This document shows, piece by piece, positions 2,313 through 14,801 of a stretch of DNA of 64,000 nt. Location of the stretch: positions 304,730,001-304,794,000 of the forward strand of contig JBNRSN020000005.1 of assembly GCA_051313645.2 (NCBI GenBank). Reading direction: 5' to 3'. Both the position numbers and the translations under genes were made by a program. How positions within the stretch are numbered: the stretch's first letter is position 1; each line of letters starts with the position of its first letter. Below the pieces are notes generated by a model. The model made no database searches and had not been told where the DNA came from. It saw nothing but the letters and a program-made list of their open reading frames with translations. The stretch is from Centroscyllium fabricii. Its lineage: Eukaryota.

Positions 2313-5300
2313 GTTGTATCTTTATGCGAGGAGCATTCGTATTAAGGTGGATGAATTGGCTGCGCAAATAGAGGTAAACAAATATAATATGATTGAGATT
2401 ACGAAAACATGGCTCCAGGATGGCCAAGGCTGGGAACTCAACATCCAAGGGTATTCAATATTCAGGAAAGACAGGCAAACAAGTAAAGGAGGTGGGGTAG
2501 CATTGCTGGTTAAAGAGGAGATTAACACAATTGTAAGGAAGGATATTGGCTCTGATGATGTGGAATCTGTATGGGTGGAACTGAGAAATACCAAGGGGCA
2601 GAAAACATTAGTGGGAGTGCTATATAGACCTCCAAACAGTAATGCGGAGGTCGGGGATGGCATTAGAAGGGAAATTAGAGAAGCATGCAATAAGGGCACA
2701 GCAGTTATCATTGGAGACTTTAATCTACATATAGATTGGACTAACCAAATTAGTAACAATGCTGTGGAGGAGGAATTTCTGGAGTGTGTACGGGATGGTT
2801 TTCTGGAACAATATGTTGAGGAACCAACTAGAGATCAGGCCATCTTAGACTGGGTATTATGTAATGAAAAAGGATTAATTTGCAATCTTGTGTGATTCCC
2901 CTTGGGACGGAGCGATCCTAATATGATAGAATTCTTCATTAAGGTGGAAAGTGAAGGAGTTGACTCAGGCACGAGGGTCCTGAATTTAAATAAATGAAAC
3001 TACGATGGTATGAGGCGCGAGTTGAGTAGGATTGATTGGGGAATGTCACTCAAAGGGTTGATGGTGGATAGGCAATGGCAAACATTCAAAGATCGCATGG
3101 ATGAACTACAGAATGTGTTCATCCCAGTTTGGCATAAAAATAAAACGAAAAAAGTGTCTCAACCGTGGCTAACAAGGGAAATTAGAGATAACATAAGATC
3201 CAAGGAAAGGTCTTATGAATTGGCCAGAAAAAGCAGTAAACCTGAGGATTGGGAGCAGTTTAGGATTCAACAAAGGAGGACAAATGGATGAATTAAGAGG
3301 GGGAAAATAGAGTATGAGAGTAAGCTTGCAGGGAACATAAAAACTGACTGCAAAATCTTTTATAGATATGTGAAGAGAAAAGGATTGGTGAAGTCAACCG
3401 TAGGTCCCTTGCAGTCAGAATCAGGGGAATTTATAATGGGGAACAAAGAAATGGCAGACCAATTAAATACACACTTTGCTTCTGTCTTCACAAAGGAGGA
3501 CACAAACAACCTCCCGGAGATGTCGAGGAACATGGGGTTTAATGAAAGGGAAGAACTGATAGAAATCAGTATTTGTAGGGAAATGGTGTTAGAGAAATTG
3601 ACGGGATTGAAGGCCGATAAATCCCCAGGGCCTGATAATCTATATCCTAGTGTACTTAAGGATGTGGCCCCAGAAATAGTGGATGCAGTGCTGGTCATCT
3701 TCCAAAATTTGATAGACTCTGGAACAGTACCCATGGATTGGAGGGTAGCTAATTTTACCCCACTATTTAAAAAAGGTGGTAGAGTGAAAACGGGGAATTA
3801 CAGAGCGGTAAGCCTGACATCGGCAGTGGGGAAAATGTTCGAGTCCATTATAAAAGATGTAATAGCAGAGTACTTGGAACATAGTGACCGGATCGGACAA
3901 AGTCAACATGGATTTACAAAAGGTAAATCGTACTTGACTAATCTGGAATTTTTGAGGATGTAACTGGTAAAATAGATAAGGGAGAACTAGTGGATGTAGT
4001 GTACTTGGACTTTCAAAAGGCTTTCGATAAGGCCCCGCATCAGAGATTAGCATGTAAAATTACGGCACATGGGATTGGGGGCAAGGTATTGACTTGCATA
4101 GAGAACTGGTTGGCAGACAGAAAGCAAAGAGTTGGAATAAATGGCTCTTTTCTCGAGTGGCAGGCAGTGACTAGTGGGATACCGCAGGGATCTGTCCTTG
4201 GACCCCAGCTATTCACAATATATATTAATGATCTAGACGAGGAAACTAGATGTAATATCTCCAAGTTTGCAGACGACACAAAATTGGGTGGGCGTGTGTG
4301 CTGTGAGGAGGATGCCGAGAAACTCCAGTATGATTTGGACAAGTTGGGTGATTGGGCAGAAGCATGGCAGATGCAATATAACGTGGATAAATGCGAGGTT
4401 ATCCACTTTGGTGTCAAAAACAAGAAGGCAGATTATTATCTGAATATCAATAGATTGGGGGAAGGGGAAGTACAATGAGACCTGGGCGTCCTTGTGCACC
4501 AGTCGCTGAAGCTAAGCATGCAGGTGCAGCAGGCGGTCAAGAAGGCAAATGGTATGTTGGCCTTCGTAGCGAGAGGGTTTGAGTACAGGAACAAGGATGC
4601 CTTTCTGCAGTTGTACAGGGCCTTGGTGTGACCACTGTATCCTTCAAGTACATTTCGCCAGTGTGAGAAAGCGTTTGATGCTCCAGGCGATCGGGGGTCA
4701 ACTTCGAACACTGATGGTTTCAACATTGTAGTATCCATTTCCAGTAGTTAATAAAATTGTAACCGTCAATAACGTCTTCGGAGTCGAATAGTTGGTTATA
4801 ATAATCAGGCTTTTATTAACTACGTTTAGCAATACTCAACAGAGCTGACTGTCCCCAGAATGGCATGGGGGATGGTAGCAGTCTCTTATATACCTCCTCC
4901 AGCGGGGGAGGAGTCATGGGCGGCGCCAGGTATGTCCCTGGGATCCCATACAGGTATTACAAGGTATTACAGGTATTACAAGGTATTACAAGGTATTACA
5001 AGGTGGTTCGTTATATACAGTGATATATAGTTTATCACAACCACATCTTGAGTATTGTGTACAGTTTTGGTCACCTTATCTGAGGAAGGATGTTCTTGCC
5101 ATGGAAGGAGTGCAGTGAAGATTTACCAGGCTGATACCTGGGATGGCAGGAATGACGTATGAGGAGAGGATGGGCCGATTGGGCTTGTACTCATTGGAGT
5201 TTAGAAGAATGAGAGGGGATCTCATTGAAACTTATAAAATTCTAACAGGACTGGACAGACTCGATGCAGGAAGGATGTTCTCGATGGTGGGGGAATCCAG

Positions 5301-8650: not shown

Positions 8651-8750
8651 AGAAACATAGAAGATAGGAGCAGGAGTAGGCCATTCGGCCCCTTGAGCCT
8701 GTTCCACCATTTAATGAGATCATGGCTGATCATCCAAATTTAGTACTCTG

Positions 8751-8981
8751 TGTCGTAAAACACAACTTCCTAAATAACCTAGGAACAGTTACTGGTTGGC
8801 CAGCTGAGGGCACCGACCAGGGAGTATAAATACCGGGGCCTAAGCACCAGTTTAAACAGAGACACTCTAGAACTAGGACGCTAGTGACTGTGAACAAGCT
8901 CTCTCTCTTTATGTTATGTTGTAAGTTGAATAAAGCCTTGCTTTATGTTCACTAAGAGCTTGGTAAGTCTTTATTACATCA
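8751..8981 (+). repeat. Gypsy 5' LTR
   Basis: TG...CA ends, TATAAA at ~8825, AATAAA at 8929-8934; direct repeat of 13427-13691. Confidence 0.93.
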
Positions 8982-9079
8982 ATTTATTCAACTTATTATC
9001 GTCTCCATGCTGGGGTGATTCGGAACAACCAGTTGCAACTCAACCTTAGAAAGGAATTTAGCAAGGAATTGAATCCATC

Positions 9080-12000
9080 ATGGAAAAACTCCTGAGGCCT
9101 GCTCGCATTGACTTGGAACCGAATGGACCTGCAGCAGCAAAGGTATGGAAGCATTGGTTTCATACTTTCGGCAACTTTCTTGAAGAATGTGGGGTGGATG
9201 CCTCTATTAAATTACGAATGCTTATCAACTACGTATCACTGCACATGTATGATTATATTGAGGACTGTACAGACTACGACACTGCTATCCAAACTTTACA
9301 CCAGTTGTATGTCAAATCTTCGAATGAAATCTTTGCGTGACACTTACTGGCCACAACTCGGCAGCAGCCAGGGGAATCACTCAATGAATTCCTCCAGAAA
9401 CTTCGCAGGCTTAGTAAAAACTGTAACTTTAAGGCTATTTCGGCTGAGAAGTATCAAGAGGAACTCATCCGCGATTCCTTTATCAATGGAATTGCGGCTC
9501 CTTTTATACGGCAGCCATTACTGGAAAATAAAACCCTCGATTTACAGGCGGCCGACGACCAGGCGTACGCTTTGGATCTAGCAAAAAAAAATGCAGACAC
9601 TTATCTCCCACTGCGTGCACGGGCGGTGGCTATCACTAGGAAAGAATTCTTAGATAGGTCTTGGGTGGAAGATCCCGCTGATGATGACTCTACTCTAACA
9701 GATGATCACCCTACCCCCGAGGCCTTCACTGATGCTGACCCCGCCTTAGCAGCGTCCTGGCAATCAAACAAAAAGTGTTTTTTTTGTGGCAGTACATTTC
9801 ATTACCGAAAATGTTGTCCGGCTCGGAATGTGACCTGCAACTATTGCAACAAAAAAGGACATTTCTCCAAAGTATGCCAGTCAAAAGCCTCGGCTAACAA
9901 GAGAGGCCGCTCCCCTAAAGCATACCGGGCGAGAGCTCATGTCAGCTTCACAGCTGCCCTCTATGGAACTGCTTCTCCCCCAAGAAACACTACTATGGCT
10001 ACAGCTGGCGAGGATGAAACTGCCCCTCCCCCTATCACAGCTGTTTTTCCACAAAGTCTGTCCTATGCAGCCAGAAGGTTTTGATCAATGGACACACTCT
10101 GAGCGCATTAATTGACTCCTGCAGCTCTGACAGCTTCATCAGTAAGCGGGCTGTCAAAAGCCTCGGCTAACAAGAGAGGCCGCTCCCCTAAAGCATACCG
10201 GGCGAGTTAAAACTTCACATTTACCCTTCGGATAGAGAGATTGCGATGGCTTTGACGACTTTGACTACCAATTCTGCTGGATTCTGTCTTGTCACCCTCA
10301 TCCTCAATGGCCGCACCTATTCCTCCACCCAGCTTGGAATACTCGAGAATTTATGCAGCGATGTGCTTCTGGGGCAAGATTTCCAGAAGCAACACAAGAG
10401 ACTCACTTTTGAGTTTGGAGGGTCCAGGCCGGAGCTTACCATTTCTAAGGCGCCGTTTTGTGCACTTTCGGCGGCCTTGCTCGGCGAACCCTCCTTATTT
10501 CCCAATCTCTCCCCCCGCTGTAAACCCATCGCCACCAGATCACAACGTTTCAGCCAGGATGATCAAGCATTTATCGGGACAGAAATTTCTCGCCTCTTAG
10601 CTGAGGGGAATCATTGAACCATCTTCGTCGCCCTGGCGGGCTCAAGTCGTCATTGTGAAGAACTCTTTAAAACCACATAAGAAATGTCTATGTATCGACT
10701 ACTCACAAACTATCAACCAATATACTGATCTGGATGCCTACCCACTCCCACGTATAGATGATATGGTCAACAACCTTGCCAAATACAAGGTATTTTCAAC
10801 TTTCGACTTAAAAAGCACGTACCATCAGGTGCCACTGAAAGATTCAGACAAGAAGTATATGGCCTTTGAGGCCAATGGTTGGCTTTATCAGTTTCGTCGC
10901 CTTCCATTTGTGGTCACCAATGGGGTGGCTGTCTTTCAACGAGCCATGGATGGCTTGGTCAGGCAAGAGTACTTGACGGATACTTTTCCATATTTGGACA
11001 ATATCACTATTGCCGGCCATGATCAGAAGGAACACGACACCAACCTGCGGTACTTTTTTGACGTCCTCCCTCGTCACCACTTAATGTTGAACAACTCTAA
11101 ATCAGTGAAATTGGTACCGTCAGTTAATATTCTTGGCTACTGGGTGGGCAACGGTGTCATTAAACCAGACCCAGAGCGACTTCATCCACTTCAGGAGCTT
11201 CCTCCTCCTGCAAATCTTGGCGCTCTTCGTCGGGCACTTGGCATGTTTGCTTATTACGCAAAGTGGATACCTCACTTCTCTGATAAAATACAGCCCCTGC
11301 TTCATGCGAAGTCCTTTCCATTAGATGCAACGGCTCTTTCGGCCTTTGACCTCCTCAAACGGCTGCTGGAGAAAGCCACGCTTCGCTCCATTGACGAGAA
11401 CCTTCCCTTTGTGGTCGAGTGTGATGCATCGGAGGTAGCGATCTTGGCTACCCTGAACCAAGGTGGGCGACCGGTGGCATTTCTATCCAGAACTTTGCAG
11501 GGTAGCGAGATCCATCATGCCCCTGTCAAGAAGGAGGCCACAACCATCATCAAAGCTGTGCGCCAATGGCGCCATTTTCTTGCTCGGCGTCATTTTACAG
11601 CAGCCTTCATGCTAGACAACCGGAAATGCACCAAAATCAAAAATAATAAAATTCAACTTTGGCGAATGGAGTTGGCTGCCTTTGGTTATACTATCCGTTA
11701 CTGACCCGGCAAACAGAATGTGGCCCCATATACCTTCACACGGGCATTCTGCTCTTCAATGTCATCATCAACCCTGGCGGATCTCCATATGGACTTATGC
11801 CATCCGGACGTAACTCGCATGCTGCATTTTGTGCAATCCAAAAATCTACCATTCTCCACGGAAGATGTCAGAAAAGCTTGCTCCTCCTGCAGGACTTGTG
11901 CGGAATTGAAACCACAATTCTTCCACCCATCAGATGGCGTACTCATACACGCTATGCAGTCCATGCAGCGACTTAGCATAGACTTGAAAGGGCCATTGCC

Positions 12001-13364
12001 CTCTTCTACACGGAATACCTACCTCCTTATAGAAACATAGAAGCTAGGAGCAGGAGTAGGCCATTCGGCCCCTCGAGCCCGCTCCGCCACCCAATGAGAC
12101 CACGGCTGACCATCCAAACCCAGCACCCCACCCCCGCCCTCTCCCCACATCCCTATCGAGCCTGCATCAACACACATCCCACGCCATCCCCGCAACCCCA
12201 CACACTCAATCCCCCCAACACTAAGGGTCAGTCCATCATGGCCAATCAACCTAACCCGCACATCTTTGGACTGACACATCTTTGGACATTGAACTGACCA
12301 TCAACCAAAAATCAACCTTGATGGGTCTAATGGCCGCAAGGGCTTGTGACAACTTGCAACACAGGTCGCCATCCATAAAAAATACAGATGAGTATTCACG
12401 CTTTCCCTTTGCTTTCCCCTGCCCTAATATGCTTACCTCTATGGTTATCAGATGCCTCGATCATGTCTTTTCTCTTTGTGGTATGACTAATTTCATCCAT
12501 TTCGATCGAGGTCCCTCCTTTATGTCTGGTGAACTTAAAAACTATCTCTCCCAATGAGGAATCGCCATGAATAAGACAACACCATATCACCCAATTGGCA
12601 ACGGGCAGGGCGAGCGGTACAACGCCATCATCTGGAACGCTGTCCGCCTGGCACTGCCGTCATGCAACTTACCCGACCAGCAATGGGAAACTGTGCTCCC
12701 CGACGTATTACACTCTATTAGGTCGCTCCTTTCTACGGCTACTAATGTCACGCCACATGAGCGATTCTTTAACCTTCGAAGTCGCTCCACACATGGGTCA
12801 TCTCTGCCATCATGGTTGGTGGCCCCAGGCCCCATGCTACTCTGGAGATTCGTCCGATCGGCCAAGAATGACCCTCTCGTGGATGAGGTGGAGCTAACGG
12901 AGGTAAACCCCACGTATGCACACGTGCGGTATCCTGATGGTCTGGAGTCCACCGTCTCACTCAGGGATCTGGCTCCCTGCCCAACCTGTCGCACGGGTCA
13001 AATTGAAGAGGGATCCCACGATAATAACACGCTACCCCCTTACGAAGATGACGCACAACCTGGGACATCGAGGAATCAGCCAGTAACGACTCAGGATGAC
13101 GTCAGCTCGGCACCTGTGGGGACCCGCACCCACAGTCACGATATTCCCTGTCCTCCACAGGATGATCAAGATGACACAGACTCTACCGGCCCACCAGTAC
13201 GGGCCAAGCGACCCAGATGGCACAATATTCCCCGTCCTCCACTGGACGATCAAGATAACACAGACTCTACCGGCCCACCAGTGCGGGTCAAGAGGCTCCG
13301 GGACCAGGACACGGTCTGGGGTGACGTGCCTTCTAGTCACAAGCGGAGAGCAAAACGACTATGA
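9080..13364 (+). pseudogene. Gypsy gag-pol (gag, PR, RT, RH, IN), disrupted
   Basis: ORF pieces 9080-9340, 9572-10084, 10246-10617, 10655-11704, 11720-12040 and 12567-13364 are in Gypsy domain order with stops and frameshifts. Confidence 0.9.
12029..12290 (-). mobile_element. 5'-truncated HE1 SINE inserted in the Gypsy integrase
   Basis: HE1 tail and body separate RNTYLL from DEYSRFPF. Confidence 0.8.
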
Positions 13365-13426: not shown

Positions 13427-13691
13427 TGTCGTAAAACCCGACTTGCTAAATAACCTAGGAAGAGTTACTGGTTGGACTTCCAAACAACCTAGGAACAGTT
13501 ACTGGTCGGCTAGCTGGGGGCACCAACCAGGGAGAATAAATACTGGGGCCTAAGCACCAGTTTAAACAGAGACACTCTAGAACTAGGAGACTAGTGACTG
13601 TGAACTAGCTCTCTGTCTTTATGTTATGTTATAAGTTGAATAAAGCCTTGCTTTATGTTCACTAAGAGCTTGGTAAGTCTTTATTACATCA
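13427..13691 (+). repeat. Gypsy 3' LTR with an internal ~34-bp tandem duplication
   Basis: Direct repeat of 8751-8981, preceded by the PPT and followed by the TSD. Confidence 0.93.
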
Positions 13692-14053
13692 CTCTGTCCC
13701 TGCTTTCTCCCCCTATTCCTTTAGCCTTAAGAAATATATCTAAGTCCTTCTTGAATATATTTAATGAATTGGCCTCAACTGCCTTGTGTGGTAGAGAATT
13801 CCACAGGTTCACCACTCTCTGGGTGAAGAAATTCCTCCGCATCTCAGTTCTAAATGGCTTACCCCTTATCCTTAGACTGTGACACCTGGTTCTGGACTCC
13901 CCCACCATCGGCAACATCCTTCCTGCATCTAGTCTGTCCAGTTCTGTTAGAATTTTATAAGTTTCAATGAGATCCCCTCTCATTCTTCTAAACTCTAGCG
14001 AATATAAGCCTAATCGACCCAATCTCTCCTCATGCGTCAAACTTGGGGATATT

Positions 14054-14801
14054 GGCCCAGAAATTGCAGTGGAGCCTTCGTGCGGGTGCAGTACCTGCTT
14101 AACGCACTTTAATTGCCCATATTCAGTTTTGCTTTTTTGCACTGAGAAATTCCCGTTGGCTCCATGCGAGTTTCATGGGCATCTGAAGGGCGTAATTAGT
14201 GCGCGGTGGCTTTTGAGACCACGTGATTGGCAGGGAGCCAATCAGTGGAAGCAATTCTCCGTTCAAAACTTCCACAGAGAAATCTGTGCGAGTTTTGAAA
14301 AGAGATTCCCAAAAGACATCTAAACACAAAAATAAAATTTTACAAACACCACATTTTTTAAACATTACCCCAACTAACACAAATAACCTATTTTAAAGAA
14401 AAAATTAAAATTTGCAGTAATTTTTTTCCACTTCCAACAGGTCTAAAAAAATATTTACCTGTCTTTAAAGTTATCAACAATTAAAAACCTGAAAAAACAA
14501 CAATTAAAATCAATAAAATACACACTTACCAGACAAAAACGGGTGTTTACGACTCCTATTTTCCAGCGTTGAATTTTCTGCTCTTGGTCCGTAGAAAAAC
14601 GTTAAAAAAACATCAGAAAGACTGGGTGATCCCGTAGTTCGCTGCTTCCTGCGCTGGACCTCGCAGGAAGCAGCGACCCCCCCCGCTGGGTGGCACAGGA
14701 AAACCCGAAGCGTGCGCTCCGGCTGCTTCCTGCGGGTTAAAGCTCTGGTGCACTCGCACCAGAGCTTAAACCCGATATGCGCAGACTGCAATTTCTGGGC
14801 C
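14054..14801. mobile_element. PIF/Harbinger-like MITE
   Basis: TIRs GGCCCAGAAATTGCAGT / ACTGCAATTTCTGGGCC; 3-bp TSD ATT. Confidence 0.82.

Follow-up and report, generated by a model that had tools for sequence, protein, structure and literature searches.

The window, that is, the whole stretch of 64,000 nucleotides of Centroscyllium fabricii DNA that was analysed, which we take to be repeat-rich with CR1 LINE and SINE content, contains two Gypsy elements, one of family B on the minus strand and one of family A, used for comparison, on the plus strand. Their features are as follows.

4631..4635, plus strand: left copy of the target-site duplication ACCAC (from the sequence and the empty CR1 site)
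4636..4738, minus strand: gag start of family B, 34 codons, truncated at an internal GGATACA (from the gag profile score)
4744..4756, minus strand: primer-binding position (PBS) TTTTATTAACTAC, which pairs with the LTR of the same element and is not of the TGG type
4757..4757, minus strand: one-base spacer A between the LTR end and the primer-binding position (from the sequence)
4758..5039, minus strand: 5' LTR of family B, 282 bp, TG...CA (from the sequence and contigs of other runs)
4807..4810, minus strand: GCCT adjoining the arm, with the predicted cut at 4811/4810
4811..4823, minus strand: LTR arm GTAGTTAATAAAA, the predicted self-primer, with AATAAA inside at 4817-4812 (from the clade survey)
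4885..4892, minus strand: putative TATA box TATATAAG, 31 nt upstream of the initiator-like CCATTCT at 4863-4857 (read from the sequence by consensus)
5040..5044, plus strand: right copy of the target-site duplication ACCAC (from the sequence)
8751..8981, plus strand: 5' LTR of family A, with the target-site duplication CTCTG at 8746-8750 and 13692-13696
8922..8934, plus strand: LTR arm of family A TAAGTTGAATAAA, 13 nt
8983..8995, plus strand: primer-binding position of family A TTTATTCAACTTA, 13 nt, one base past the LTR end, with the spacer A at 8982
9080..13364, plus strand: gag-pol of family A, decayed, with stops, frame breaks, and a SINE-like insert near 12027-12290; the RT motif is YLDN
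13427..13691, plus strand: 3' LTR of family A, behind which the target duplication stands in place of a complementary arm

The family B element was an incomplete insert of 404 bp (4636-5039) nested in a CR1 LINE; it comprised the LTR and the leader and ended 34 codons into gag. The minus-strand order was the LTR (5039-4758), the spacer A, the PBS (4756-4744), five bases, and the gag codons. The empty CR1 site, with 4630 joined to 5040 and five letters in common, was found in the contigs of all four runs compared. The LTR end GGTTACA at 4758 and the single spacer A described in the earlier note were both seen, and the end was fixed independently by contigs of three runs (X1, X15, and X19), which matched up to 4758 and then continued into unrelated flanking sequence.

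The truncated end of the stub, GGATACA, matched the LTR end GGTTACA at six of seven bases and was flanked by a clean 5-bp duplication (window 4631-4642). Contigs of other runs extended past 4636, with a sequence that differed from the CR1 flank. This end looks like the product of integrase joining at a cryptic internal site. The U3 of family B contained five near-tandem copies of a 10-base unit (window 4952-5000). Over window 4637-4826, a contig from organism D (X12) was identical for 190 bases and one from organism C (X9) had one difference; close kinship, transfer, and contamination may each account for this near-identity.

Element A carried a 34-nt duplication in its 3' LTR (window 13448-13509), an 84-nt repeat at the end of pol (window 13137-13292), and, in the protease region at about 10156-10207, a copy of approximately 50 nt of gag sequence from about 9884. 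Further perfect inverted pairs were located at window positions 14662, 49420, 50727, 51081, and 53012 within repeats that look like the MITE type.

The two arms of family B (4744-4756 and 4811-4823) were 13 nt long and 100% complementary across a 54-nt loop, and the perfect pairing of 4756-4744 with 4823-4811 stated in the earlier note was thereby reproduced. Family A showed the same layout, with 13-nt arms at 8922-8934 and 8983-8995. The spacer A and the 13-bp stem were the same in both elements, as had been claimed; the loop sizes, also claimed to be the same, were similar but not equal (48 nt in A versus 54 nt in B). The LTRs of A and B had nothing in common beyond 7-mers, each with an E value of 2.9, which agrees with their description as unalignable. 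Folding of the leader, a check proposed at the outset, gave a divided result: the local folds were better than those of shuffled sequences at 4740-4830 (z of -3.6, 0/200 shuffles as good) and 8915-9000 (z of -3.8, 1/200 shuffles as good), but the longer windows were not significant (z of -1.5 for B and -0.8 for A). No Rfam match was obtained across either leader.

Families A and B were assigned to one clade because a profile built from 46 relatives of the gag of A gave the gag start of B a score of 23.3 bits, the best of 1,000 shuffles scoring 1.6 bits. Searching with the gag N-terminus of A retrieved 854 cluster representatives at E ≤ 0.001. The named relatives (Macrobrachium, Oratosquilla, Procambarus, Hydra, Xenia, Ischnura, several butterflies and moths, Trichonephila, and Trichuris) came from cnidarians, crustaceans, insects, one spider, and one nematode, and no relatives were found in viral contigs by RT or gag alignment. 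The polyproteins of all six full-length relatives had the Pfam order PR-RT-RH-IN, and none of the six contained a chromodomain; the best solved match was Ty3 Gag-Pol (E of 6e-71) (no chromo family at E ≤ 0.01 in the six). TG...CA LTRs, 5-bp target-site duplications, and this domain order place the elements among the Ty3/Gypsy LTR retrotransposons, family B via its gag start only. The RT motif was Y-x-D-N in element A (window 10601-11704) and in 10 of the 14 hairpin families with a readable motif and Y-x-D-D in four (L003, L037, L066, and L070); the stem was present with both kinds. It was also present in intact single-ORF elements with near-identical LTRs (L004, L008, and L037).

For the survey, a metagenome scan matched 269 stretches, of which 146 were confirmed, and the best 80 of these 146 were combined with the two window elements to give 82. 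Nine with less than 99 nt upstream were left out, and the 73 usable elements were grouped at 80% gag DNA identity into 33 families. The gag N-termini of 21 representatives had a median identity of 46% (25-83%). The stem score was the longest perfect stem whose 3' arm begins one base past a CA located within 200 nt of gag.

Such an anchored stem of at least 11 bp was found in 43 of the 73 elements and, counting any member, in 23 of the 33 families, which are not fully independent owing to their kinship and to a possible origin of several loci in shared hosts. Taking the unselected first member of each family, the count was 18 of 33. None of 1,980 dinucleotide shuffles reached 11 bp, and the arm of one family paired with the LTR of another at this length in 9 of 650 combinations. 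The frequency of the stem was therefore above that of the composition controls, and the selected RNA pairing common to the clade that the earlier note had proposed gained support. Chance complementarity in AT-rich sequence could appeal to the AT-rich arms and to the presence in the window of several further 13-bp inverted pairs that are perfect and lie 20-80 nt from each other; set against the shuffles, the fixed register, and the matched double change described below, it is extremely improbable.

In the 26 families with a stem of at least 9 bp, stems ranged from 9 to 18 bp and loops from 24 to 72 nt, and the constancy of stem length and loop size claimed from the first two elements does not hold across the clade. 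The unselected stem positions 10 to 16 were paired in 23, 26, 24, 23, 18, 18, and 13 of the 26 families, respectively, and position 17 in 7 of 25. Seven of the 33 families (L002, L030, L039, L046, L052, L055, and L059) had no anchored 9-bp stem under the strict test. A looser examination revealed 11-12 bp in L030 and L055, and the other five were still without a stem.

The PBS was represented by 21 distinct 11-mers in the 26 families, and two to four different Watson-Crick pair types were observed across families at every position from 2 to 13. As positions 1-9 of the pair table are Watson-Crick by selection, pairs were recounted free of that bias in the 48 anchored elements: with G-U scored equal to Watson-Crick, 610 of 624 cells were Watson-Crick, 4 were G-U, and 10 were mismatched. 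Copying of one arm from the other would be expected to leave almost no G-U pairs. Within family B, the plus-strand variants 4749 T>G and 4818 A>C are stem partners. They occurred at similar depth in X1 (21% and 16%) and in X14, and in X15 the double change was carried on one contig, a single low-depth record (depth of 4.2). Among 40 of the 43 variant rows listed, these two were the only changes in the arms, and the loop varied at nine places.

Within the same 40 of 43 rows, the 22 nt just outside the stem (4824-4845) held 13 substitution rows at 12 places and several indels. The 13-nt arm had one variable place, and 4846-4900 was quiet again. The jump in variation at 4824-4845 could correspond to the U3/R border or to a free 5' tail. 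In the family of L022 (L022:137 region) and L025, the arm ended in GAAGA and the PBS was changed to match, with no AATAAA or ATTAAA nearby.

The diversity of the PBS bears on the identity of its partner. A tRNA, a tRNA half, or another host small RNA might bind the PBS, with the LTR arm acting as a competing closing stem; half-tRNA priming is described for copia lineages in passages of PMC6317226, and the PBS has a partly fixed pattern, TTT at positions 1-3 and ACT at positions 9-11. We regard this as very unlikely because the 21 different 11-mers each track the LTR of their own family, and a host RNA would keep the site constant. A TGG-type start, the complement of the tRNA 3' CCA, was found in none of the 26 PBSs.

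The position of the arm relative to the LTR end was regular. The spacer base was A in 24 and G in 2 of the 26 families, and the four bases following the LTR arm (+1 to +4) were G, C, C, and T in 22, 24, 22, and 19 families, respectively. Spacers of 0, 1, 2, 3, and 4 nt were counted in 0, 23, 1, 3, and 8 of the 33 families, the values at 3 and 4 nt being confounded by LTR ends such as CAACA; the register argument therefore rests on the elements with two LTRs. In all four families of this kind (window element A, the L008 group, L070, and L080), for which the LTR end was set by comparison of both LTRs, the arm began one base past that end. A fixed one-base register favours a primer, which requires it because this register sets the LTR end.

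The stem might instead serve mainly to hide the poly(A) signal of the 5' LTR, blocking premature cleavage there and allowing it at the 3' LTR, while another primer is used. This explanation is attractive because a partner arm was found behind the 5' LTR only and because 19 of the 26 arms contain AATAAA or ATTAAA. Retroviruses must suppress their 5' poly(A) site, as passages of PMC3694450 describe, and a TATA-driven upstream start would make such suppression useful. However, masking requires neither the one-base register at the LTR end nor the scarcity of G-U pairs (4/624 cells), and under it the element would have no primer site, given the lack of TGG-type starts. Seven of the 26 arms were paired yet had no hexamer, including the GAAGA arm of L022 with its matched partner change. 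As the main role of the stem, masking thus appears unlikely; because of the seven arms without a hexamer, it is probably secondary to self-priming.

Tf1 of fission yeast is an element in which self-priming has been proven. By analogy, the pairing of PBS and LTR in this clade would probably provide a tRNA-independent self-primer, and it is likely that the whole group uses a fragment of its own RNA to initiate reverse transcription. The 5' leader would fold back on itself, and the RNase H of the element would cut just past the last paired base, between 4811 and 4810 in family B. The freed 3'-OH would be extended across the 54-nt loop, and the short DNA would jump to the 3' end of the RNA by means of the 15-30 nt that separate AAUAAA from the poly(A) site. 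Plus-strand synthesis would then copy the primer into a new PBS, as in the general self-priming scheme known from Tf1 work, and such copying would keep the arms in perfect Watson-Crick step. Covering of the 5' AAUAAA may be a side benefit of the stem.

The junction at which the cut would fall was conserved as AAA/GCC. A helix of at least 4 bp starting directly after the arm (GCCU/AGGY and variants) was present in 19 of the 26 families, for which shuffles expect 5.6; helices of this length at other offsets from the arm were found in 4 to 13 families, and both window elements reached 3 bp only. This short hairpin, beginning at the first base past the cut, may help mark the cutting position. Folding of the loop itself was little better than that of shuffles in the 26 families (mean z of -0.5, 3/26).

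The primer could also be supplied by another copy of the LTR, which would pair with the PBS: either the R copy at the 3' end of the RNA, or a short RNA that terminates at the 5' poly(A) site and is trimmed back to the duplex. The arm ends with the poly(A) hexamer and itself occurs at both RNA ends, the TATA boxes found upstream in 6 of 21 families would lengthen R, and cis and trans pairing are alike in sequence. The local fold-back, in contrast, has its partner within 24-72 nt and corresponds to the predicted minimum-energy fold, and the hairpin at the first base past the arm fits a local cut. We know of no precedent for priming by another LTR copy, and we consider it improbable.

Under the self-priming reading, the length of the primer depends on where the RNA begins, for which the general consensus motifs of initiator, TATA box, and DPE were used. 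In family B, the TATA/initiator pair would put a candidate RNA start at 4861, 38 nt upstream of the arm, unlike in Tf1. An initiator-like YYNAGY with its A at -11 was found in 14 of the 26 families (background of 0.8% per position) and would yield a Tf1-sized primer, but the pairing usually extends to positions 13-16. A TATA box at the right distance from the arm was found in 2 of 24 families, where 1.8 were expected, and TATA boxes 81-127 nt upstream in 6 of 21, where 2.0 were expected. A DPE-like motif was found in none of the 26 families. The contig breaks at 4822-4826 were considered as RNA starts and rejected, as they adjoin variable sites. In Tf2, alternative starts include or exclude the self-primer, according to passages of PMC5341516, and thus both starts could be in use here.

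Passages on LTR retrotransposons, including those of bioRxiv 10.1101/2022.12.06.519325, describe self-priming as common among the Tf1/sushi chromoviruses. As in Tf1/Tf2 of Schizosaccharomyces pombe, Tj1, and the Tf1/sushi group, the PBS of the present clade complements its own LTR and not a tRNA, and the duplex of approximately 11 bases or more and the Gypsy domain order are also shared with that group (passages of PMC7175516, PMC4600332, and bioRxiv 10.1101/2022.12.06.519325). The clade differs from Tf1/sushi in lacking the chromodomain, which is usual there but not universal, in 6/6 polyproteins and in having a primer arm that ends in the poly(A) hexamer in 19/26 families. Unlike in Tf1, the stem is 9-18 bp with a short loop, and the arm may lie inside the leader instead of at its 5' end. 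A third duplex of the pretzel structure around the PBS is described for Tf1 in passages of bioRxiv 10.1101/2022.12.06.519325; in our 26 families, the mean z for such a duplex was +0.2, with 2/26 below -1.64. The present clade probably works like Tf1, yet two marks by which Tf1/sushi membership is tested, the chromodomain and the three-duplex pretzel, were not found in it.

Self-priming has been predicted from sequence complementarity alone for plant Tcn1 and TAR in passages of PMC6317226. These belong to other lineages and hosts than the present elements, TAR being a copia element and Tcn1 a chromovirus. In passages of PMC3601003, hairpin priming is mentioned for chromoviruses only. HIV-1 and foamy viruses suppress 5' polyadenylation via U1 snRNP at the splice donor and via RNA structure (passages of PMC3694450); the present elements resemble them in having a poly(A) signal in both LTRs and differ in that the partner strand is the PBS itself. 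The supplement of PMC6238403 lists the Cigr-1 clade of Ty3/Gypsy under Mag, and the main texts of the mollusc and annelid surveys reporting Cigr (PMC6238403 and PMC8556966) gave no match for PBS or primer binding. The literature covered, mostly open-access and with repeat databases outside its scope, contained no report of self-priming in this clade.

As a tentative extension, it is conceivable, though doubtful, that a pan-animal, non-chromoviral Gypsy clade evolved self-priming independently, with an internal primer ending at the poly(A) hexamer, and that a single duplex both protects the 5' poly(A) signal and sets the position of the cut, thereby coupling full-length RNA to priming. A large chromodomain-free animal clade with the Tf1 signature would mean that self-priming arose again or is older than thought. 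Self-priming would also account for the failure of tRNA-based annotation to find a PBS in elements of this kind. The overlap of the arm with AAUAAA raises the testable question of how priming and 3'-end processing use one sequence, and the short leader (<130 nt), together with the many natural matched variants, would make cutting and priming readily accessible to in vitro study.
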